The position numbers were made by a program, and so were the translations under genes. DNA of 64,000 nt from Escherichia coli (GTDB lineage: Bacteria > Pseudomonadota > Gammaproteobacteria > Enterobacterales > Enterobacteriaceae): the NCBI RefSeq assembly GCF_030384885.1, contig NZ_CP128613.1. The stretch is one strand, 5' to 3'. Shown one piece after another: positions 7,980 to 28,380 of this stretch (positions are counted from its first letter, which is position 1; the number at the start of each line of letters is the position of its first letter). The notes below the pieces were generated by a model, which was given only the letters and a program-made list of their open reading frames with translations, did not search any database and was not told where the DNA came from.

Positions 7980-8756
7980 ATGAAAATTACTCAAATTCGT
8001 AATGCCACCCAAATTATCCAATACGCTGGCAAAACATTTCTTATTGACCCGTTACTCGCGCCTAAAGGAAGTTATCCGGGTTTTGCCGGAACGGCACGCG
8101 CAGAAATCCGCAATCCAACGGTAGAATTACCGTGTGATTTAACAACGTTACTCAACGTTGACGCCCTAATAGTGACCCATTTGCATGAAGATCACTGGGA
8201 CGAAACAGCCTCCCGCGTCGTCCCCAAAGATAAACAGATTTATGTGCAAAATGAGCAAGATGCTGAATCACTGCATAAACAAGGATTTACGCATCTTACC
8301 GTACTTGCCGACGAGACTAAATTTGGCGATATTACTCTGCATAAAACGACAGGGCAGCACGGCTCCGATCGCACCTATGCAGACCCGGCTATGGCGAAGC
8401 GTTTAGGCGCAGCCTGCGGCGTTGTTTTCCAGCACCCGACAGAGAAAACGCTCTATCTGGCTGGCGATACCCTCTGGCGTGATGACGTCGAGGCTACAAT
8501 GCTAACTTTCCAACCAGAAGTGGTGGTGTTGAATGCCGGATTTGCGCATGTTCTGGGGCATGGCGCGATAATTATGGGAGCTGAAGATATTCTCAAAACA
8601 CATTTTACCCTGCCAGAAGCGCAAATTGTCGCGACACATATGGAGGCCGTAAACCACTGTTTGCTGACGCGTGATGCGCTCAAGGAATACGCCAGAGATA
8701 ATCAAATTATCGAATTTGTGAACGTACCAGAAGATGGTGAAACGTTGACATTCTAA
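7980..8756 (+). CDS. MBL-fold metallo-hydrolase (possible lactonase / glyoxalase-II-like), function unknown
   Basis: 258 aa from ATG 7980 (GGAG 7 nt upstream); metal-binding motif THLHEDHWD (HxHxDH); no signal peptide. Confidence 0.75.
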   Translation: MKITQIRNATQIIQYAGKTFLIDPLLAPKGSYPGFAGTARAEIRNPTVELPCDLTTLLNVDALIVTHLHEDHWDETASRVVPKDKQIYVQNEQDAESLHKQGFTHLTVLADETKFGDITLHKTTGQHGSDRTYADPAMAKRLGAACGVVFQHPTEKTLYLAGDTLWRDDVEATMLTFQPEVVVLNAGFAHVLGHGAIIMGAEDILKTHFTLPEAQIVATHMEAVNHCLLTRDALKEYARDNQIIEFVNVPEDGETLTF

Positions 8757-8775
8757 TTCGGAGATAAAGAGTGTT

Positions 8776-9729
8776 ATGCGCCCGCTAACTGTTGCCATTA
8801 TCGCCGTTGCCGGTTTTAGTCCTTTTCACCTTTCCGTACCGTTTATCGTGTTTAGCGAAAAAATGGCGGAGAAAAAACGCTTTCATGTAATTATCTGCGC
8901 TGAAAAGCCGGGAAATGTGGACTCTGCCGATGGGTTTTCCGTAACCGCCACCCATGACTATACGGCAGTCATCCAGGCGGATATTGTGATAATTCCTTAC
9001 TGGGGAACAATTACACAAAAACCGCCACAAAAACTGCTGGAAGCCTTAACGACCGCACGAGATAACGGGGCACAGATTGTCGGGCTTTGCCTGGGCACGT
9101 TTGTGCTCGGCTATGCAGGTTTACTGAACAATAAGCGTGCTGCCACGCACTGGGAGTTCGAGCGTGAATTTCAGGCACGTTTTCCACAAACACATCTGGA
9201 TATTAACGCGTTGTATGTAGACGATGATGGCATTATTACCTCTGCCGGTACTGCCGCGGCGCTGGATTGCTGTTTGTATATTGTTCGGCAACATTTTGGC
9301 AGCGACTATGCTAACCATATTGCCCGACGGATGGTCGTACCGCCATATCGCACCGGCGGTCAGGCGCAGTTTATAGAGCAACCGGTGCCGAAAAATACCC
9401 ATGATGAACGCATTAACCTCCTGCTGGATTACCTGCGGCAAAACATTGCGCAACAGCATGATCTCGACTCGCTGGCTCAGCGAGTAATGATGAGTCGCCG
9501 CACACTAACCCGTCATTTTATGAAAGCGACCGGTTCGAGTATCGCCGAATGGCTCATCACTGAACGCTTACGCCGTAGCCAGGAACTGTTGGGATCCAGT
9601 CAGTTGCCCGTTGAGCGGATAGCGGCTGAGGTGGGTTTTCTCTCACCTGTGACCTGGCGTCAGCATTTTAAATCTCACTTCGGCGTCAGCCCCGCAGAAT
9701 GGCGCAAAACCTTTCGTGGTATGGCATGA
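8776..9729 (+). CDS. GlxA-family transcriptional regulator (N-terminal DJ-1/PfpI-like domain, C-terminal AraC-type HTH)
   Basis: 317 aa; N-terminal part has the nucleophile-elbow-like IVGLCLGTF; C-terminal RRTLTRHFMKATGSSIAEWLITERLRRSQELL... is a typical AraC HTH pair. Confidence 0.75.
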   Translation: MRPLTVAIIAVAGFSPFHLSVPFIVFSEKMAEKKRFHVIICAEKPGNVDSADGFSVTATHDYTAVIQADIVIIPYWGTITQKPPQKLLEALTTARDNGAQIVGLCLGTFVLGYAGLLNNKRAATHWEFEREFQARFPQTHLDINALYVDDDGIITSAGTAAALDCCLYIVRQHFGSDYANHIARRMVVPPYRTGGQAQFIEQPVPKNTHDERINLLLDYLRQNIAQQHDLDSLAQRVMMSRRTLTRHFMKATGSSIAEWLITERLRRSQELLGSSQLPVERIAAEVGFLSPVTWRQHFKSHFGVSPAEWRKTFRGMA

Positions 9730-16039: not shown

Positions 16040-16125
16040 GCCTGATGCGCTCCGCTTATCAGGCCTATAAGTTCAGTGATCTACGTAGGCCGCATCCGGC
16101 GTAAACAAAGCGCAGGAACGAGCGT
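16040..16125. repeat. REP elements
   Basis: gcctgatgcgctccgcttatcaggcct and taggccgcatccggcg palindromes between lacA and cynX. Confidence 0.7.
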
Positions 16126-19514: not shown

Positions 19515-19585
19515 GCCTGATGCGCGACGCTTATCAGGCCTACGAGTTCAGTGCAAGGCGTTCACGCCGCATCCGACATAAACTA
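19515..19585. repeat. REP elements
   Basis: gcctgatgcgcgacgcttatcaggcct and cgccgcatccgacat REP-type palindromes. Confidence 0.7.
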
Positions 19586-19606: not shown

Positions 19607-20890
19607 TTACCGTTTGTAATCGATGGCTTCCGGCTGCTCCAGATACACGGTGGTTTGTGCCGGTTGCGTGGTGGCAATCACCTTACCACCACGTACCGAA
19701 TAGCGTACCGGAACCTGACGGCGCAGCGCATCAAACCCATTTTCAGCCGGCAGGATAATCAGGTTAGCGCTGTTTCCGGCGACTATGCCGTAATCCTGCA
19801 AATTCAACGTCCTGGCGCTATGGTGGGTGATTAAATTTAGGCCGTCGTTAATCTGCCCGTAGCCCATCAACTGACAAACATGCAGCCCCATATGCAGCAC
19901 TTGCAGCATATTCGCCGTTCCCAGTGGATACCACGGATCGAAGACATCATCGTGACCAAAGCAGACGTTAATGCCGGACTCCAGCATCTCTTTAACGCGC
20001 GTAATACCGCGACGTTTTGGATACGTATCGAAACGCCCTTGTAGATGAATATTGACCAGCGGGTTGGCGACAAAGTTAATACCGGACATTTTCAGCAAAC
20101 GGAACAGCCGCGAGGTATACGCCCCGTTATAGGAGTGCATTGCCGTGGTGTGGCTGGCGGTGACTCGCGCGCCCATGCCTTCACGGTGAGCCAGGGCGGC
20201 AACGGTTTCGACAAAGCGCGACTGTTCGTCATCGATCTCATCACAGTGAACATCGATGAGACGGTCGTATTTTTGCGCCAGGGCGAAGGTTTTATGCAGC
20301 GACTCCACGCCATATTCACGGGTAAATTCAAAATGCGGAATCGCCCCCACTACGTCAGCCCCTAAGCGTAACGCCTCTTCCAGTAACGCTTCACCGTTGG
20401 GATACGACAAAATCCCTTCCTGCGGGAAGGCGACGATTTGCAGATCAATCCACGGCGCGACTTCCTGCTTCACTTCCAGCATCGCTTTTAGCGCAGTCAG
20501 GGTTGCATCCGAAACATCGACATGGGTACGCACATGCTGAATACCGTTGGCAATCTGCCATTTCAGCGTTTGCCAGGCGCGTTGTTTCACATCGCCATGG
20601 GTTAATAATGCTTTGCGCTCGGCCCAGCGTTCAATGCCTTCAAACAGCGTGCCGGACTGATTCCAGTTCGGTTGCCCGGCGGTTTGCGTGGTATCCAGGT
20701 GAATATGCGGCTCCACAAACGGCGGTAAAACTAAACCTTGCTCGGCATCCAGGCTGTTTTCTGTTACGGGCATCACGCCGGATTGCGCATCAATGGCGCT
20801 GATTTTTCCGTCCTGCAGATGAATCTGCCATAGCCCCTCTTTGCCGGGTAACCGGGCGTTAATAATTGTCTGTAAAGCGTTATTCGACAC
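19607..20890 (-). CDS. codA: cytosine deaminase
   Basis: GTG start ([16 protein letters not shown]...), 427 aa; amidohydrolase HxH metal motif (PHIHLD); overlaps codB stop. Confidence 0.95.
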
Positions 20891-22139
20891 TGTTAGCCTC
20901 CACATGCGTCATTGCAGCTGTCGTTTTGCGATTCAAAATCGGGTTAAGGATCAGATAGCTCAGCGCACCACCTAATACCGCGTTGACCGGAACAATGCCC
21001 GGTAACCAGTGGCCTGCGGCAATCCCCAGCGCGACCGCCAGAATCGCCACCCAATTGACACTCATCATACGCGTGGTCGCAAAGTGCTCATAGCGGCGAC
21101 GGTTCATCAGATAGTCGGCGATGATCACGCCACCCACCGGAGGAATAGCAGCCGAAAGGAAGGTTAGCCAGCCGACAAAATTGTTATACAGCCATAGTGC
21201 GCAGACCGTGCCGATAATACCGTTGATTACTGAAAGAGTTTTGCTCGACATACCGGTAATATTGGCGAAACCTAAACCCGACGCATAGAGCGCGTTATCG
21301 TTGGTGGTCCAGATATTCAACCCCAGCACCACAATCGCGGGCAGCAGCAAGCCCTGAGCAATCATCACATCAGAGATATCCGCCATCCCCAGTGCCGCAG
21401 CGCCTGCCGCACCGAAAATAAACATCAACGAGTTGCCGAGGAAAAAGGCCACCATCGCCACCAGCACCGCCAGTTTGGCATTGCGACCAAAGCGGACAAA
21501 GTCAGCGGTGAGCGTACCCGCACTGATAAATGACCCCACAACCAGCGCCAGCGCGACATTGAAATCTAGCGGTTGTGCGGGAACGACCGCTTTTAAGGCG
21601 TCCAAACCGCCCATGCCGTTAACGGCCAGCCATACGGAATAACCGCCAAGGCAGGCAATCGCCGGAACCGCAATCACCGAAAGTACCGTCAGCGCCGAAA
21701 TGCCAAAGAAGACGGTGACGGTCATCAGTAAACCGGAAACGGCAATCAGCAAATTAATATCCAGCCCGGTTGCCTTGCCCACCGGAATAGCAAACATCGC
21801 CACGCCAACACCAAACCAGCCGACCTGAGTGCCGCCCAGCAGCAGTGAAGGCAGCCATGAGCCTTTAACACCAAACGAGAAGCGAGCAAGAAGATGGGTG
21901 GTCAGGCCGGTTTTTGCGCCAATGTAACCAAGAAATGAAGTGTAAATACCGAGGAGAAGATTACCGATGAGGACTGCGAGGAAGAAATCATGATAGCTAA
22001 GACCGGTTCCGAGAGTGCCGCCGGTCCACATACTGGCGGAAAAGAAGGTTAATCCCAGCATGACGAACGTCAATGCCAATACCCCTTTCCGCGCCGACTG
22101 CGGGACTGGCCCCTGGCTAAAGTTGTTATCTTGCGACAC
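20880..22139 (-). CDS. codB: cytosine permease
   Basis: 419 aa, [29 protein letters not shown]... Confidence 0.97.
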
Positions 22140-22289
22140 GAAATTCCCCCTTTTTGCTGTTTGAAACCCAAAAAATCCGCCGCATTCTATTCATCTGAAG
22201 ATAAAAAGCAATCGTTTTCGTGGAGGGGGTATATTTTTTATATGGATGAATGCGGAAAAGTGGATAAAAACTTATTTGAGAAAAAATGG

Positions 22290-22650
22290 GTACACATGAT
22301 AAGACACGCCTGCGTCGCATCAGGCATCTGCGCACGGTGTCGGATGCGGCGCGTGCGCCTTATCCGACCTGCGGTTCAGGCCTGTAGGCATGATAAGACG
22401 CGTCAGCGTCACATCAGGCATCTGCGCACGGTGTCGGATGCGCCGCGTGCGCCTTATCCGACCTACGGTTCAGGCCTGTAGGCATGATAAGACGCGCCTG
22501 CGTTGCATCAGGCATCTACGCATAGCTGTCGGATGCGCCGCGTGCGCCTTATCCGACCTGCGGTTCAGGCCTGTAGGGATGATAAGACGCGTCAGCGTCG
22601 CATCAGGCATCTGCGCACGGTGTCGGACGCGCCACACGACACATCCGACA
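22290..22650. repeat. tandem BIME array, about 3.7 copies of a ~94-bp unit containing REP palindromes
   Basis: Unit catgataagacgcg(tc/cc)...catcaggcatctgcgcacggtgtcggatgcg(c/g)cgcgtgcgccttatccgacct(g/a)cggttcaggcctgtagg recurs at about 22296, 22389, 22483 and 22577. Confidence 0.85.
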
Positions 22651-22655
22651 ATACC

Positions 22656-24542
22656 TTACTCTTCCATCGCCTGGCGGATCTGATCCAACGACGCAGGATC
22701 ATCAATGGTCGTCAGATCTCCCGGATCGCGTCCTTCACAAATCGCCTGGATCGTGCGGCGCAGCATTTTTCCGGATCGCGTTTTTGGCAATTGCGAGACA
22801 AACCAGACGTGCGCCGGGCGGCCAAAGTTGCCAATCTGGCTGTCCACCAGCGCCATAATCGCCTTCTCTTGCGAGTGCGCCACCTCGCGATCTTCCAGAC
22901 TGTCGCTCTCTTTCGGAATGACAAACGCCACCGCCACCTGCCCTTTCAGCGCATCTTTCACCCCAACCACCGCCACTTCAGCAACGCCCGGATGACTGGA
23001 GATACTCTCTTCAATCTCGCGTGTGCCAAGCCGATGCCCGGCAACATTAATCACATCGTCAGTGCGCCCGAGAATAAAGTGATAACCGTCAGCGTCACGG
23101 ATGCCCCAGTCAAAAGTGGCATACACCGGACGGGAAAACAGCGACCAGTACGTCTTCACAAAGCGGTCGTCGTCGCCCCAGATGGTCTGAATACAGCCCG
23201 GCGGCAACGGCCCTTCCACCACCAGCATCCCTTTCTCATTGACGCCGCACGGTTCGCCGGTGACTTCATTGAGCAACTGCACGTTATAGCCATACATCGG
23301 CACGCCGGGGCTTCCCAGACGCGTCGGCCTGTCGTCCAGACCGCGAGCAATTGCCATAATCGGCCAGCCGGATTCGGTCTGCCAGTAGTTGTCGATGACC
23401 GGCACATCCAGCGTATTGCTCACCCAACTGGCGGTCGGCTCGTCCAGCGGTTCTCCCGCCAGATAGAGCACTTCCAGCGACGAGAGATCGTGTTTGCGAA
23501 TTTCAGCGGTAGGGAATTTTTTCAGCACGCGAATGGCGGTCGGCGCTGAGAACATCCGGCTAACCTGATATTTCTCGACGATTTTCCACCACACACCGCA
23601 GTCAGGATAAGTCGGCAATCCTTCGTAAACGATAGTCGCCATCCCCGCCAGCAGCGGCGCGTAGACGATATACGAATGCCCCACTACCCAGCCGATATCC
23701 GACGCACAGAAGAACACACCGCCCGCTTTGCCGCCAAAAATGGTGTCCATTGAGGTCGCCAGCGCCACCGCATAACCGCCGACGTCACGCTGTACGCCTT
23801 TTGGTTTGCCGGTCGTGCCGGAGGTGTAGAGAATGCAGGAGGTTTCGTTGGATTCCAGCCACGCCACCGGCACCCGCGCGCCGATGTGTTGATGGCGCAA
23901 CGACGCGAAATCGACATCCCGCCCGCTGACGCGCGCCATTTTCGCCAGCCCGCGATCCACCAGCAAAACGTGGCGCGGCTGATGCTGCGCCTGACTTATC
24001 GCATCGTCGAGCAATTTTTTATAAGGAATGATTTTGCCACCGCGCGCTCCGGCATCTGCCGAGACAATCAGCACCGGTTTAGCGTCATCAATCCGCGCAG
24101 CCACGCTGTGCGAGGCAAATCCACCAAACACTACCGAGTGAATAGCGCCAATGCGCGCGCAGGCCAGCAGGGTAATATGCGCTTCGGCAATCATCGGCAT
24201 ATACACCAGCACCCGATCGCCACGCCGTACGCCCAGTGAGCGCAGCATTGACGCCACCGCGTTCACTTCGTCATGCAACTGGCGAAAGGTAAAGGTGCGC
24301 TCTTCTTCTGTTTCCGAAGAGACGGCAATTAATGCCAGCGCCTCTGGCTGTTTCTCCAGCCAGCGGTCGATGGCGTTATGACACAAATTGGTTCGGCCTT
24401 CACAAAACCAACGGGCAAACGGCGGATTGCTGTGATCGAGCGTTTGCGTAAAGGGCGTCTGCCAGTCAATACGCCGGGCCTGCTCGGCCCAGAATTGCTC
24501 CGGTTCGTTAATCGAACGCTGATAAAATTCGCTAAAAGACAT
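22656..24542 (-). CDS. prpE: propionyl-CoA synthetase
   Basis: 628 aa, MSFSEFYQRSINEPEQFWAEQARRIDWQTPF...; AMP-binding motif YTSGTTGKPKG. Confidence 0.97.
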   Translation of the reverse strand: MSFSEFYQRSINEPEQFWAEQARRIDWQTPFTQTLDHSNPPFARWFCEGRTNLCHNAIDRWLEKQPEALALIAVSSETEEERTFTFRQLHDEVNAVASMLRSLGVRRGDRVLVYMPMIAEAHITLLACARIGAIHSVVFGGFASHSVAARIDDAKPVLIVSADAGARGGKIIPYKKLLDDAISQAQHQPRHVLLVDRGLAKMARVSGRDVDFASLRHQHIGARVPVAWLESNETSCILYTSGTTGKPKGVQRDVGGYAVALATSMDTIFGGKAGGVFFCASDIGWVVGHSYIVYAPLLAGMATIVYEGLPTYPDCGVWWKIVEKYQVSRMFSAPTAIRVLKKFPTAEIRKHDLSSLEVLYLAGEPLDEPTASWVSNTLDVPVIDNYWQTESGWPIMAIARGLDDRPTRLGSPGVPMYGYNVQLLNEVTGEPCGVNEKGMLVVEGPLPPGCIQTIWGDDDRFVKTYWSLFSRPVYATFDWGIRDADGYHFILGRTDDVINVAGHRLGTREIEESISSHPGVAEVAVVGVKDALKGQVAVAFVIPKESDSLEDREVAHSQEKAIMALVDSQIGNFGRPAHVWFVSQLPKTRSGKMLRRTIQAICEGRDPGDLTTIDDPASLDQIRQAMEE

Positions 24543-24581: not shown

Positions 24582-26033
24582 TTAAATGACGTACAGGTCG
24601 AGATACTCATTGACCGGCATCTGTTCCAGGCGAGCTCTGTCGAGAGAAACGTCCAGAATGCGCTGCTGCTGTCGAGTCGGGAACTGGCGCGCGAGGTTGA
24701 TTTTGAATTTATCGACCAGTTTCGGAATACCGTCATGGCGGCGACGAGCATGACCAATTGGGTACTCCACCACCACTTCTTCAAATCGCGTACCGTCGGT
24801 AAACTCAAGGGTAATGGCATTGGCGATGGCGCGTTTTTCCGGGTCGTGGTAGTCAGCGGTAAATGCCGGATCTTCAAAGCAATTGATCTTCTCGCGCAGG
24901 GCGTCAATGCGTTTATCTTGCGCAACGTTGTCTTCGTAATCTGCCGCCGTTAAGCGCCCGAATAACAGCGGGATCGCCACCATGTACTGAATGCAGTGGT
25001 CGCGGTCAGCCGGGTTATTGAGCGGCCCTTTTTTGTCGATGATGCGAATACAGGCTTCGTGGGTGCGAATGGTCACTTTTTCGATATCTGCCGCCGTTTT
25101 GCCTGCTGCCTGCATCTGTTCATAGAGCGTCATCGCCGCTTCAACTGCCGTCTGGGAGTGGAACTCCGCCGGGAAGGAGATTTTGAACAGCACATTTTCC
25201 ATGACGTAGGAACCGTACGGGCGCTGGAAGCGGAACGATTCACCTTTAAAGGAGACGTCGTAGAAACCCCACACCGGCGCGGTCAGGGCTGACGGGTAAC
25301 CCATTTCGCCCGTTTTCGCCATCAGCGCCAGACGTACCGCGCGGGATGTAGCATCGCCCGCCGCCCAGGATTTACGCGTGCCGGTGTTCGGCGCATGGCG
25401 GTAGGTGCGCAGCGACTGTCCGTCTACCCATGCCAGCGAAACGGCGTTGAGGATTTCATCACGGGTCAGGCCAAGCATTTCGGCGACCACGGCGGTGGAA
25501 GCCACTTTCACTAACAGAACGTGGTCGAGACCGACGCGATTAAAGGAGTTTTCCAGCGCGATGCAGCCCTGAATTTCATGGGCTTTAATCATTCCGGTCA
25601 GCACCTGTTTCATGGTCAACGGCGTTTTGCCGCTGGCGACCGCGTTGCGCGAAAGCCAGTCCGCCGTTGCCAGAATGCCGCCGAGGTTGTCGGAAGGATG
25701 GCCCCACTCCGCCGCCAGCCAGGTATCGTTGAAATCGAGCCAGCGGATCATCGCGCCAATGTTAAATGCCGCCTGAACGGGGTCGAGCTGGAACTGGGTT
25801 CCAGGGACGCGTACGCCGTTAGGTACGACGGTGCCGGGGACAATTGGCCCCAGCAGTTTTTTACAGGCCGGGTATTCGAGAGCTTCCAGACCGCAGCCGA
25901 GAGTGTCAAGCAGGCAGTAATGGGCGGTGTCGTAGGCTACTTTGGAGCTAATTTCGTAGTTCATCACGTAATCGACGATATCAACGATTTCACGATCAAA
26001 TTCCGGACGGATGTTGTTAATTTGAGCTGACAT
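24582..26033 (-). CDS. prpD: 2-methylcitrate dehydratase
   Basis: 483 aa, [31 protein letters not shown]... Confidence 0.97.
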
Positions 26034-26066: not shown

Positions 26067-27236
26067 TTACTGGCGCTTATCCAGCGCGACAAACTGGCGG
26101 TCTTCCGGTCCAACGTAATTGGCGGAAGGACGGATAATTTTGTTGTCCTGACGTTGTTCGATAATGTGCGCTGCCCAGCCGGTGACGCGGGCGATAACAA
26201 ACAGTGGCGTGAACATCTCGGTGGGAACGCCCATCATGTTGTAGGAAACAGCGGAGAACCAGTCGAGATTGGGGAACATCTTTTTGCTCTCCCACATCAC
26301 CGCTTCCAGACGATCGGCGATGTTGTACATCTTCAGCGAGCCGCCTTCCTGCGAGAGCTGCTTCGCCACGCGTTTGATCACCTGATGACGCGGGTCAGCG
26401 ATGGTATAAACCGGATGTCCAAAACCAATCACCACTTCTTTGTTTTCCACGCGCTTGCGGATATCGGCTTCGGCTTCGTCCGGCGTTTCGTAGCGTTGCT
26501 GGATCTCCAGCGACACTTCATTCGCCCCGCCGTGTTTCGGCCCGCGCAGTGCGCCAATCGCGCCGATAATCGCTGAATACATGTCAGAGCCGGTGCCCGC
26601 AATCACCCGGCTGGTAAAGGTGGAGGCGTTAAACTCGTGTTCGGCGTACAGCACCAGCGAAATATGCATCGCCTTTTCCCAGCTTTGCGACGGCTTTTCG
26701 CCATGCAGCAGATGCAGGAAGTGACCGCCGATGGAGTCGTCATCGGTTTCCGGCTGAATGCGTTCGCCGTTGTGGCTGTAGTGATACCAGTAGAGAAGAA
26801 TCGAGCTAAGTGATGCCAGCAGTTTGTCGGCAATATCACGCGCGCCGGAGACGGTATGCCCCTCTTTTTCTGGCAGCGTGCAGCCGAGCGCGGAAACGCC
26901 GGTGCGCATGACATCCATCGGATGCGACGCCGCTGGTAAGGCTTCCAGCACGGTACGCACGTTAGCCGGTAAACCGCGCAGGGCTTTCAGTTTCGTTTTG
27001 TAGGCGGCGAGTTCGTCACGGGTCGGCAGTTTGCCGTGGATCAGCAGATGCGCCACTTCTTCAAATTCGCAATGTTCCGCCAGATCAAGAATGTCGTAGC
27101 CGCGGTAATGCAAATCATTGCCACTTTTACCCACGGTGCAGAGCGCCGTATTGCCCGCCGGAACGCCAGAAAGTGCCACAGATTTTTTTGGTTTAATGAC
27201 ATGGGTACTGTTTTGCAGGATCGTTGTGTCGCTCAT
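26067..27236 (-). CDS. prpC: 2-methylcitrate synthase
   Basis: 389 aa, citrate-synthase family. Confidence 0.97.
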
Positions 27237-27269
27237 GTTGTCCTCGTCATTGTTATCATTTGTAGGGTC

Positions 27270-27470
27270 GAGATTGTTGTCGGATGCGACGCTATGCGTC
27301 TTATCCGACCTACAGTTCAGTTCATCCCGTAGGCCTGATAAGCCGCGTCAGCGACGCATCAGGCATCGGTTGTCGGATGCGACGTCATGCGTCTTATCCG
27401 ACCTACAGTTCAGTTCATCCCGTAGGCCTGATAAGCCGCGTCAGCGGCGCATCAGGCATCGGTTGTCGAA
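27270..27470. repeat. BIME: two tandem copies of a ~100-bp REP-containing unit
   Basis: gtcggatgcgacg(c/t)(t/c)atgcgtcttatccgacctacagttcagttcatcccgtaggcctgataagccgcgtcagcg(a/g)cgcatcaggcatcggttgtcg repeated. Confidence 0.85.
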
Positions 27471-27489
27471 TACAACCAAAGGGCGTTTT

Positions 27490-28380
27490 TTATTTCGCCT
27501 GGTTACGGGCAAACAGGTCGTCGAGCTTTTCTTCGTACTGGTAGTAGTTAATGCTTTCATACAGCTCGTTGCGGGTCTGCATGGTGTCGATGACGCTTTT
27601 CTGCGTGCCTTCCTGGCGCAGGACGTTGTAGACATGTTCAGCGGCGCGGTTCATGGCGCGGAAAGCAGAAAGGGGATACAGCGCCATTGCGACATGGGCG
27701 CTGCGTAATTCGTCGGTGGTAAACAGCGGTGTTGCGCCAAACTCGGTAATGTTGGCAAGGATTGGCACCTGCACCGCATCGGCAAACTGGCGGTACATAG
27801 CGAGTTCGGTAATTGCTTCCGGGAACAACATTTCGGCACCCGCTTCAACATAGGCCTGCGCACGCTCGAGCGCCGCATCCAGCCCTTCAACCGCCAGCGC
27901 ATCGGTGCGCGCCATGATCACAAAATCAGGATCGGTTTTCGCATCCACCGCCGCGCGGATCCGATCCACCATCTCTTCTTTCGAGACGATCGCTTTGTTC
28001 GGGCGATGACCGCAGCGTTTTGCTCCAACCTGATCTTCAATATGTAAGCCCGCCGCACCGGCTTTAATCATCGATTTCACAGTGCGGGCAACGTTAAAAG
28101 CCGAAGAGCCAAAACCGATATCCGCATCCACCAGCAGCGGCAGCGAGCAGACGTCAGTGATACGACGAATATCAGTCAGCACATCATCAAGAGTAGAAAT
28201 ACCGAGATCCGGCAACCCCAGCGAACCTGCCGCCACACCACCGCCGGAGAGATAAATCGCCTGATATCCGGCACGCTGCGCCAACAGCGCATGATTAGCG
28301 TTGATGGTGCCGACAATCTGCAATGGATTTTCTTTAGACAGTGCAGCGCGAAACGCTTTACCCGGAGAGTGTAGAGACAT
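27490..28380 (-). CDS. prpB: 2-methylisocitrate lyase
   Basis: 296 aa, [34 protein letters not shown]... Confidence 0.97.

Follow-up and report, generated by a model that had tools for sequence, protein, structure and literature searches.

The question raised by this locus is what the repeats lying between codB and prpE, and again between prpC and prpB, actually are, and whether the long open reading frames (ORFs) that cross them deserve to be called genes. Our answer is that both repeats are very probably BIMEs of the BIME-2 type, with artefactual ORFs and a polymorphic copy number. The window, meaning the whole 64,000-nucleotide stretch of Escherichia coli DNA that was analysed, carries the neighbouring genes as follows.

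20880-22139, minus strand: codB
22656-24542, minus strand: prpE, with its TAA stop codon at 22658-22656
24582-26033, minus strand: prpD
26067-27236, minus strand: prpC
27490-28380, minus strand: prpB

All lie on the minus strand, as does codA, and the names given to codB, prpE, prpC and prpB in the first-pass annotation of this DNA agree with the annotated CDS coordinates. The codB-prpE gap (22140-22655) is 516 bp long and the prpC-prpB gap 253 bp; the PGAP annotation of the window's genome places no feature in either. The two gaps contain the following.

22295-22633, no strand: tandem BIME array of the codB-prpE gap, 3.6 copies of a 94-bp unit, each unit a z2 REP and an inverse y-type REP
22140-22294, minus strand: unique, non-repeated 155 bp upstream of codB, outside the array
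27276-27468, no strand: tandem BIME array of the prpB-prpC intercistronic gap, 2.1 copies of a 93-bp unit

Both arrays are wholly extragenic, between annotated CDS, and the unique 155 bp is presumably the codBA promoter region. For 22295-22633, Tandem Repeats Finder gives period 94, 3.6 copies, 90% matches and a score of 571, in agreement with the approximately 3.7 copies of a ~94-bp unit first proposed. For 27276-27468 it gives period 93, 2.1 copies, 97% matches and a score of 365, so the two copies proposed for the prpC-prpB gap stand, but the unit is 93 bp and not ~100 bp. A repeat search spaces the repeat starts of the first array by 94, 94 and 95, and its units are identical to one another at 86-88 of 94 positions, far above chance. 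A third similar array, with period 101 and 1.8 copies (Tandem Repeats Finder), lies at 349-531, between mhpT and mhpE.

REPs were located in the arrays by a blastn-short census, and the y and z2 consensus sequences were taken from PMC11208160, z2 being GCCTGATGCGACGCTGGCGCGTCTTATCAGGCCTACG. Each unit does contain REP palindromes, as had been claimed, namely a z2 REP and a y-type REP inverted with respect to one another. Followed in the direction of the prp mRNA, the codB-prpE gap runs from the prpE TAA through 5 nt to an anchor y-like hairpin and a z2 REP, then through three repeats of a block made up of an 11-nt linker, a y-type REP, a 12-nt linker and a z2 REP, and finally through the unique 155 bp to the codB start. 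The REPs in that order are as follows.

22621-22650, minus strand: anchor y-like REP hairpin (TGTCGGATGTGTCGTGTGGCGCGTCCGACA), its first base 5 nt past the prpE stop; -21.1 kcal/mol, z -5.05
22580-22608, minus strand: z2 REP of partial unit 4, 96.6% to the published z2 consensus
22527-22561, minus strand: y-type REP of unit 3, GTCGGAT/ATCCGAC variant, foot GCAG and not GTAG; -17.6 kcal/mol
22478-22513, minus strand: z2 REP of unit 3, 91.7% to the z2 consensus
22432-22466, minus strand: y-type REP of unit 2, GTAG foot, 28/35 to the y consensus; -16.4 kcal/mol
22384-22419, minus strand: z2 REP of unit 2, 91.7% to the z2 consensus
22338-22372, minus strand: y-type REP of unit 1, GCAG foot; -18.8 kcal/mol
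22297-22325, minus strand: z2 REP of unit 1, codB-proximal, 93.1% to the z2 consensus over 29 nt, its outer foot degenerate (GTACA instead of GTAGG)

A REP homologous to the anchor closes the prpE end of the gap in 11 of 11 strains examined. In the codB-prpE array, the z2 REPs match the published consensus at 91.7-96.6%, and the y-type REPs match theirs at 28 of 35 positions, the differences falling mainly in the loop and in one compensated stem pair (GCCGGAT/ATCCGGC becoming GTCGGAT/ATCCGAC) that is compensatory in the Rfam alignment too. The GTAG tetranucleotide is found at three of the four z2 REPs of the codB-prpE array, the first having GTAC, and at one of the three y REPs; it is present at nearly all codB-prpE units of other strains.

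A REP is an imperfect 30-40-nt palindrome that can make a hairpin with a mismatch inside it. For the y-type hairpins the folding energies range from -16.4 to -21.1 kcal/mol, and these hairpins contain an internal loop. The z2 hairpins of the same array reach -12 to -15 kcal/mol with z from -0.4 to -1.8, no better than shuffles, and their stem is weakened here by a mismatch in the foot, CATGAT for CCTGAT. When the array is folded as a whole (z -4.98), pairings also form across units, and the result has little bearing on the local hairpins. A simple scan of the minus strand found no intrinsic terminator. Pairing was examined in an alignment of 24 distinct codB-prpE units from eight strains, where 95.1% of cells form the pairs of the two-hairpin structure (y 98%, z2 93%), a figure that drops to 22-47% if the partners are shifted by one to three columns, and where the variation between units concentrates in loops and linkers. 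No covariation was seen within the locus in these 24 units, and as the stems are invariant this speaks neither for nor against structural selection.

The prpB-prpC array is built in a similar way from four REPs, listed here from the prpB end.

27421-27457, minus strand: z2 REP, 32 nt past the prpB stop codon, 91.9% to the z2 consensus
27371-27406, minus strand: y/z2-chimeric REP (GTAG with GTCGGATAAGACGC...GCGTCGCATCCGAC), 28/35 to the y and 28/35 to the z2 consensus
27328-27364, minus strand: second z2 REP, 91.9% to the z2 consensus; a naRNA4 match of 65.8 bits lies at 27332-27403
27278-27313, minus strand: second y/z2-chimeric REP, approximately 40 nt upstream of the prpC start; -19.2 kcal/mol, z -5.66

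All four carry GTAG. This array may be BIME-2-like or an 'atypical BIME', the chimeric y member being what sets it apart.

The naRNA4 matches bear on whether each unit might encode a small RNA like naRNA4, a processed RNA of ~80 nt that binds the HU protein and with it condenses the nucleoid. The Rfam model RF02564 (naRNA4) describes one y+z2 pair, was taken from REP325 and has a gathering score of 59.5 bits. It matches every unit of the arrays, and the match in the prpB-prpC array and those in the third array (76.8 bits at 352-429 and 84.1 bits at 453-530) exceed the gathering score. The four units at 22290-22650, matched on the mRNA-sense (minus) strand, all fall below it, at 59.0 (22387-22463), 57.9, 53.8 and 40.0 bits, with E-values of 1e-5 to 7e-10. 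More generally, the model fits any y+z2 pair, and that the units are small-RNA genes is very unlikely.

A CRISPR locus would likewise show short palindromic repeats at regular spacing in an intergenic position. Here it is the full 94 bp that repeats, at 86-94% identity and including the 11-12-nt segments between the palindromes, and because whole units repeat with their linkers there are no unique spacers. Adjacent palindromes, moreover, belong to two types and point in opposite directions. Both arrays lie within the first 50 kb of the window, where the annotation shows no cas gene, and no CRISPR family appears among the Rfam matches. The first-pass annotation, in calling the arrays BIMEs and not CRISPR, had named unique spacers between the repeats as the observation to look for; they were looked for and none were seen. 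With no unique spacers, and no cas gene annotated in those 50 kb, CRISPR is excluded, and we give it a negligible probability.

The BIME reading also has to account for the ORFs, which are present at the coordinates originally given for the first three of those below.

22131-22481, plus strand: artefactual ORF of 116 aa opening with TTG, which extends into the array from a stretch antisense to the codB start
22390-22683, plus strand: artefactual ORF of 97 aa within the array, ending antisense in prpE
27118-27708, plus strand: artefactual ORF of 196 aa that overlaps prpC and prpB in antisense and reads each unit of the array in the same frame (93 bp being 31 codons)
27284-27544, plus strand: artefactual ORF of 86 aa, whose counterpart over a six-copy array is WP_021527964.1 of strain PKF4

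The length of these frames (97-196 aa in the window and 210-307 aa over the six-copy array) might suggest real repeat-containing proteins, and PGAP has annotated one of them: in strain PKF4, the 210-aa 'hypothetical protein' WP_021527964.1 consists of six translated units of the prpB-prpC array. PGAP leaves the gaps without annotation in the other 12 records inspected. The ORF set differs in each of ten strains and none of its members is conserved. The more copies there are, the longer the ORF: over the prpB-prpC gap there is no ORF with zero units, 134-136 aa with one unit, 196 aa with two, 245 aa with four and 307 aa with six. The peptide SGICARCRMRRVRLIRP, said to recur in all three of the ORFs first listed, does occur in 22131-22481 and 22390-22683, and in truncated form in ORF 22503-23549, but not in 27118-27708, which repeats a different 31-aa unit of its own in frame. 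Since 94 is not a multiple of 3 (94 mod 3 = 1), successive units of the first array are read in different frames, and the same peptide therefore turns up in different ORFs. The frames run antisense into codB, prpE, prpC and prpB, none matches a Pfam family, and an exact search of a 15-billion-protein collection for the products of five of them found none. The ORFs are by-products of translating GC-rich palindromes; that they encode real proteins is extremely unlikely, and the advice that they not be annotated as genes is borne out by their lack of conservation, their scaling with copy number and the absence of a Pfam match.

Copy number was compared in ten other complete genomes, with PKF4 added for the prpC-prpB gap only. 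The states of the two gaps in these complete E. coli genomes are as follows.

codB-prpE gap of 236 bp: 0.6 units
codB-prpE gap of 324-338 bp (K-12: 329): 1.6 units
codB-prpE gap of 424 bp: 2.6 units
codB-prpE gap of 516 bp (window): 3.6 units
codB-prpE gap of 892-893 bp (an O157:H7 strain, LR14): 7.6 units
codB-prpE gap of 985 bp (JNE12-007): 8.6 units
prpC-prpB gap of 44 bp: 0 units
prpC-prpB gap of 155-159 bp: 1 unit
prpC-prpB gap of 253 bp (window): 2 units
prpC-prpB gap of 439 bp (K-12, L6-21): 4 units
prpC-prpB gap of 625 bp (PKF4): 6 units

The suspicion that copy number varies between strains was thus well founded, the range being 0.6-8.6 units in the codB-prpE gap and 0-6 in the prpC-prpB gap, and the copy numbers of the two arrays do not co-vary over 11 strains. 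Frequencies come from a sample of 60 genomes taken at even steps down the similarity ranking and are estimates from match spans rather than counts. On that basis the codB-prpE gap holds 0.6 units in approximately 25% of genomes, 1.6 in 45%, 2.6 in 8% and more than 3.6 in 10%, with an IS inserted in 5%; the prpC-prpB gap holds no unit in approximately 40%, one in 23% and at least four in approximately 30%, with few genomes at two or three. The 3.6-unit state of the window is a minority form. Among the 40 best matches the same span is found in at least 15 other genomes, and only the window's own genome is at least 99% identical over the codB-prpE array.

O157:H7 genomes carry 2.6 units in some cases and 7.6 in others, a difference that could be due to fast change in the array or to assemblies in which it has collapsed. 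The K-12 prpB//prpC repeat is tabulated among those that broke contigs when a genome was assembled from 454 reads (PMC3045373); beyond that table, the papers searched contained nothing on REPs of the prp operon. The b-number b0332 is missing between prpB and prpC in K-12, and a literature search for it gave only unrelated catalogue numbers.

The assignment to BIME-2 can now be set against known systems. BIME-2 are described in the summary that Ton-Hoang et al. 2012 (PMC3333891) give of the work of Bachellier and colleagues as y and z2 REPs in inverse orientation and multiple tandem copies, the units being well conserved within a locus and variable in number between strains. The codB-prpE array resembles them in its inverse y+z2 units, which are well conserved within the locus, its short linkers of ~11-12 nt, its extragenic tandem copies and its strain-variable number, and it is on the inverse pairing of y and z2, the tandem copies and the variable number that the probable BIME-2 class rests. 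It differs in that its y REP is a locus-specific variant (GTCGGAT/ATCCGAC) only 80% identical to the consensus, in the CATGAT mismatch of the z2 foot and in the two y REPs without GTAG in the window's strain; at prpB-prpC the chimeric y member is a further departure. REP325, the source of the naRNA4 model, is a 12-hairpin BIME-2 between yjdM and yjdN in K-12. The prp arrays are likewise tandem two-hairpin y+z2 units between genes of the same strand, with matches to the covariance model, but they have fewer copies (3.6 and 2.1 against 6), and the four codB-prpE units lie just below the gathering threshold. The element is of a known kind, at a locus already known as repetitive, and it adds nothing new on BIMEs unless its copy number tunes prp.

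How such arrays grow is recorded in part by the differences between their units. The y loops read GCACGC in all three units of the window and GCTCGC in all 21 units of other strains. Such a change, peculiar to one strain and common to the units of its array, points to recent amplification or homogenisation within the window's codB-prpE array. The z2 loops alternate A-B-A-B, and identity is higher at a shift of 188 bp (141/150) than at 94 bp (136/150), a pattern that fits one event in which two units were duplicated together, 1.6 units becoming 3.6. Changes in copy number add or remove entire units, or blocks of two, probably through replication slippage or unequal recombination between units, and possibly with the aid of the REP-associated transposase TnpA-REP. 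This enzyme cleaves and recombines BIMEs, and amplification by cleavage and strand transfer has been proposed for it (PMC3333891); slippage, unequal recombination and the TnpA-REP route are indistinguishable from sequence. TnpA-REP requires GTAG (PMC3333891), and because two of the three y REPs read GCAG, not GTAG, the window's codB-prpE array looks partly decayed as a substrate.

The REPs are also targets for a mobile element. IS621 is an IS110-family bridge-RNA recombinase whose reported natural target is ATCAGGCCTAC (PMC11208160), a sequence shared with the foot of the z2 REP (Choi 2003; Durrant 2024, PMC11208160). Two exact targets lie in the prpB-prpC array, at 27422-27432 and 27329-27339, and another in the cynR-codA gap. 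By comparison, the z2 feet of the window's codB-prpE array read ATCATGCCTAC, ATCATCCCTAC and ATCATGTGTAC, one to three bases off. IS621 itself is absent from the window.

Elsewhere, in O22:H8 strain 154 and in MB06172, IS621 sits in the codB-prpE gap, where it has entered the codB-proximal z2 REP at the CT core of ATCAGGCCTAC. Its junction in this gap was found in 306 of 5,426 genomes (at least 80% of a 120-nt junction query covered). Strain 02E060 has a TGGGTAG duplication together with the first six bases of the IS and without the element, which resembles a footprint.

IS621 was seen at a single REP of this gap, the codB-proximal one, whose target sequence is exact, and the one-base variant foot ATCATGCCTAC is present in 22 of the 24 aligned codB-prpE units. 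A rather unlikely possibility is that the variant foot protects those units from insertion.

Whether the arrays do anything for the cell is a separate matter, and we rate the chance of a measurable regulatory effect at this locus as about even. The two arrays separate same-strand genes, one inside the prpBCDE operon and one past its final gene. By analogy with other REPs, hairpins in the prp mRNA would block 3'-to-5' exonucleases and would cause partial termination, in part Rho-dependent; together, barrier and partial termination would raise prpB relative to prpCDE and reduce the transcription that continues past prpE into codBA. REP325 is a partial Rho-dependent terminator and a stabiliser of upstream mRNA, its deletion alters the expression of its operon, and tandem gene pairs with a REP show upstream-biased expression genome-wide; the effects of REPs depend on context, and mRNA half-life is not uniformly changed (bioRxiv 10.64898/2026.03.23.713779). 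The malE-malF and other intercistronic REPs, cited in PMC12306157 from Newbury et al. 1987 as stabilising upstream mRNA, offer a further parallel, the prpB-prpC array also lying in a polycistronic operon just 3' of the first cistron; one difference is that this array is missing from approximately 40% of the sampled genomes. A REP at most 15 nt from a stop codon lowers translation of the upstream gene, according to PMC12306157 as it cites Liang et al. 2015. The anchor REP, 5 nt past the prpE stop, falls within that range and might act in the same way; the first REP after prpB, at 32 nt, is outside it. At the level of DNA, BIME-2 elements are preferred sites for gyrase, whose cleavage is enriched in BIME-2 (PMC6379681). 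The prp locus is not named in PMC6379681 or its supplements, nor in the supplements of the BIME paper.

The distribution of the arrays argues against a strong role. Since the prpB-prpC array is absent from approximately 40% of the 60 sampled genomes, and approximately 25% keep only the minimal 0.6 unit after prpE, the arrays are dispensable. The z2 hairpins of the window's codB-prpE array, no more stable than shuffles, and the reported dependence of REP effects on context count in the same direction. The arrays may be neutral or selfish REP doublets, spreading and multiplying through slippage or the REP-associated transposase, tolerated where harmless and without effect on prp or codBA, a reading that concerns function only and is compatible with their identity as BIMEs. 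It would account for presence and copy number that vary freely among strains (0-6 and 0.6-8.6 units), for unit variants that are strain-specific and common within an array, which point to recent local amplification, and for the decay of the window's array in its GCAG feet and weakened z2 stem; models of amplification driven by TnpA-REP have, as noted, been published. Against it stand the genome-wide link between REPs in tandem gene pairs and upstream-biased expression, the effect of deleting REP325, and the retention of the anchor REP, 5 nt past the prpE stop, in every one of the 11 strains examined. We regard the absence of any effect as a real possibility, though as somewhat the less probable side of the question.

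What these arrays offer is chiefly practical. They yield long ORFs that gene callers sometimes accept, as with the 210-aa RefSeq protein, which is nothing more than six units in translation. Short-read assemblies break or collapse at them, and their copy number is usable as a strain marker only when it is read from long-read assemblies. They also mark natural landing sites of the IS621 bridge recombinase. A more ambitious suggestion, which we consider rather unlikely, is that the copy number of both arrays acts as a heritable, fast-mutating dial on propionate catabolism. Were this so, the PrpB:PrpCDE ratio would depend on the 0-6 units that separate prpB from prpC, the insulation of codBA from prp read-through would depend on the 0.6-8.6 units behind prpE, and the differences between strains at these two gaps would be regulatory variation and not neutral noise.

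The codB-proximal z2 REP of the codB-prpE gap serves as an insertion site for IS621, a bridge-RNA recombinase element of the IS110 family. In O22:H8 strain 154 (locus L005) and in MB06172 (locus L009), the element is inserted at the CT core of ATCAGGCCTAC, at a point equivalent to about 22290-22300 in the window, and the transposase genes lie within the gap:

L005, 5829-6809: IS621 transposase CDS
L009, 5311-6291: IS621 transposase CDS

Of 5,426 complete E. coli genomes, 306 covered at least 80% of a query spanning the insertion junction. The window contains the natural IS621 target ATCAGGCCTAC without mismatch at these positions:

27329-27339, minus strand
27422-27432, minus strand
19533-19543, plus strand

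The z2 REPs of the codB-prpE array carry ATCATGCCTAC, ATCATCCCTAC or ATCATGTGTAC at the foot in place of this target, and the T variant of the foot was found in 22 of 24 aligned units from eight strains. The first z2 REP of the array is without its GTAG foot because the unique DNA adjoining it on the codB side (window 22222-22294) reads GGATGAATGCGGAAAAGTGGATAAAAACTTATTTGAGAAAAAATGGGTACA, differing from the GAATGAGTGCAAAAAGGTGGGGG...AACAGTGGGTAGG of the 10 other strains examined.

Strain 02E060 (L011) has an apparent footprint of IS621 at positions of about 150-175 in the codB-prpE gap, the element itself being absent. It consists of a duplication of TGGGTAG together with ATACTG, the first bases of the IS621 left end, fused to the REP; a span of 937 bp, as in this strain, was seen in two of 60 sampled genomes.

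Further REPs are found elsewhere in the window:

349-531: third BIME-2 (bacterial interspersed mosaic element) array, mhpT-mhpE gap, period 101, 1.8 copies
16040-16067: single z1-type REP, convergent lacA/cynX gap
19515-19575: z1+y REP pair, convergent cynR/codA gap

The y and z2 REPs that build the mhpT-mhpE array are canonical, agreeing with the consensus at 94-97%, and the array's matches to naRNA4, the Rfam model of one y+z2 pair, are the highest in the window (84.1 and 76.8 bits). The O6:K2:H1 strain C 691-04A (L007, 3536-5551) is without cynR-cynTSX, and its lacA directly adjoins codA. Two segments of the window may be accessory insertions relative to the K-12 map:

7980-9729: MBL-fold hydrolase and GlxA-family regulator, between mhpR and lacI
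34219-38652: AI-2-type sugar ABC transporter, between yahK and yahJ

Among complete O157:H7 genomes the span of the codB-prpE array varies, some having a length that corresponds to 2.6 units and others one that corresponds to 7.6 (matches H171-H173 versus L003), which reflects either repeats collapsed in some assemblies or rapid change in copy number. The prpB-prpC array of strain PKF4 (L012) has been annotated as protein-coding:

L012, 1848-2480: 'hypothetical protein' WP_021527964.1, 210 aa, RefSeq

This protein is a BIME array of 6.1 copies translated in frame, and its reading frame overlaps the 3' end of prpB in antisense.
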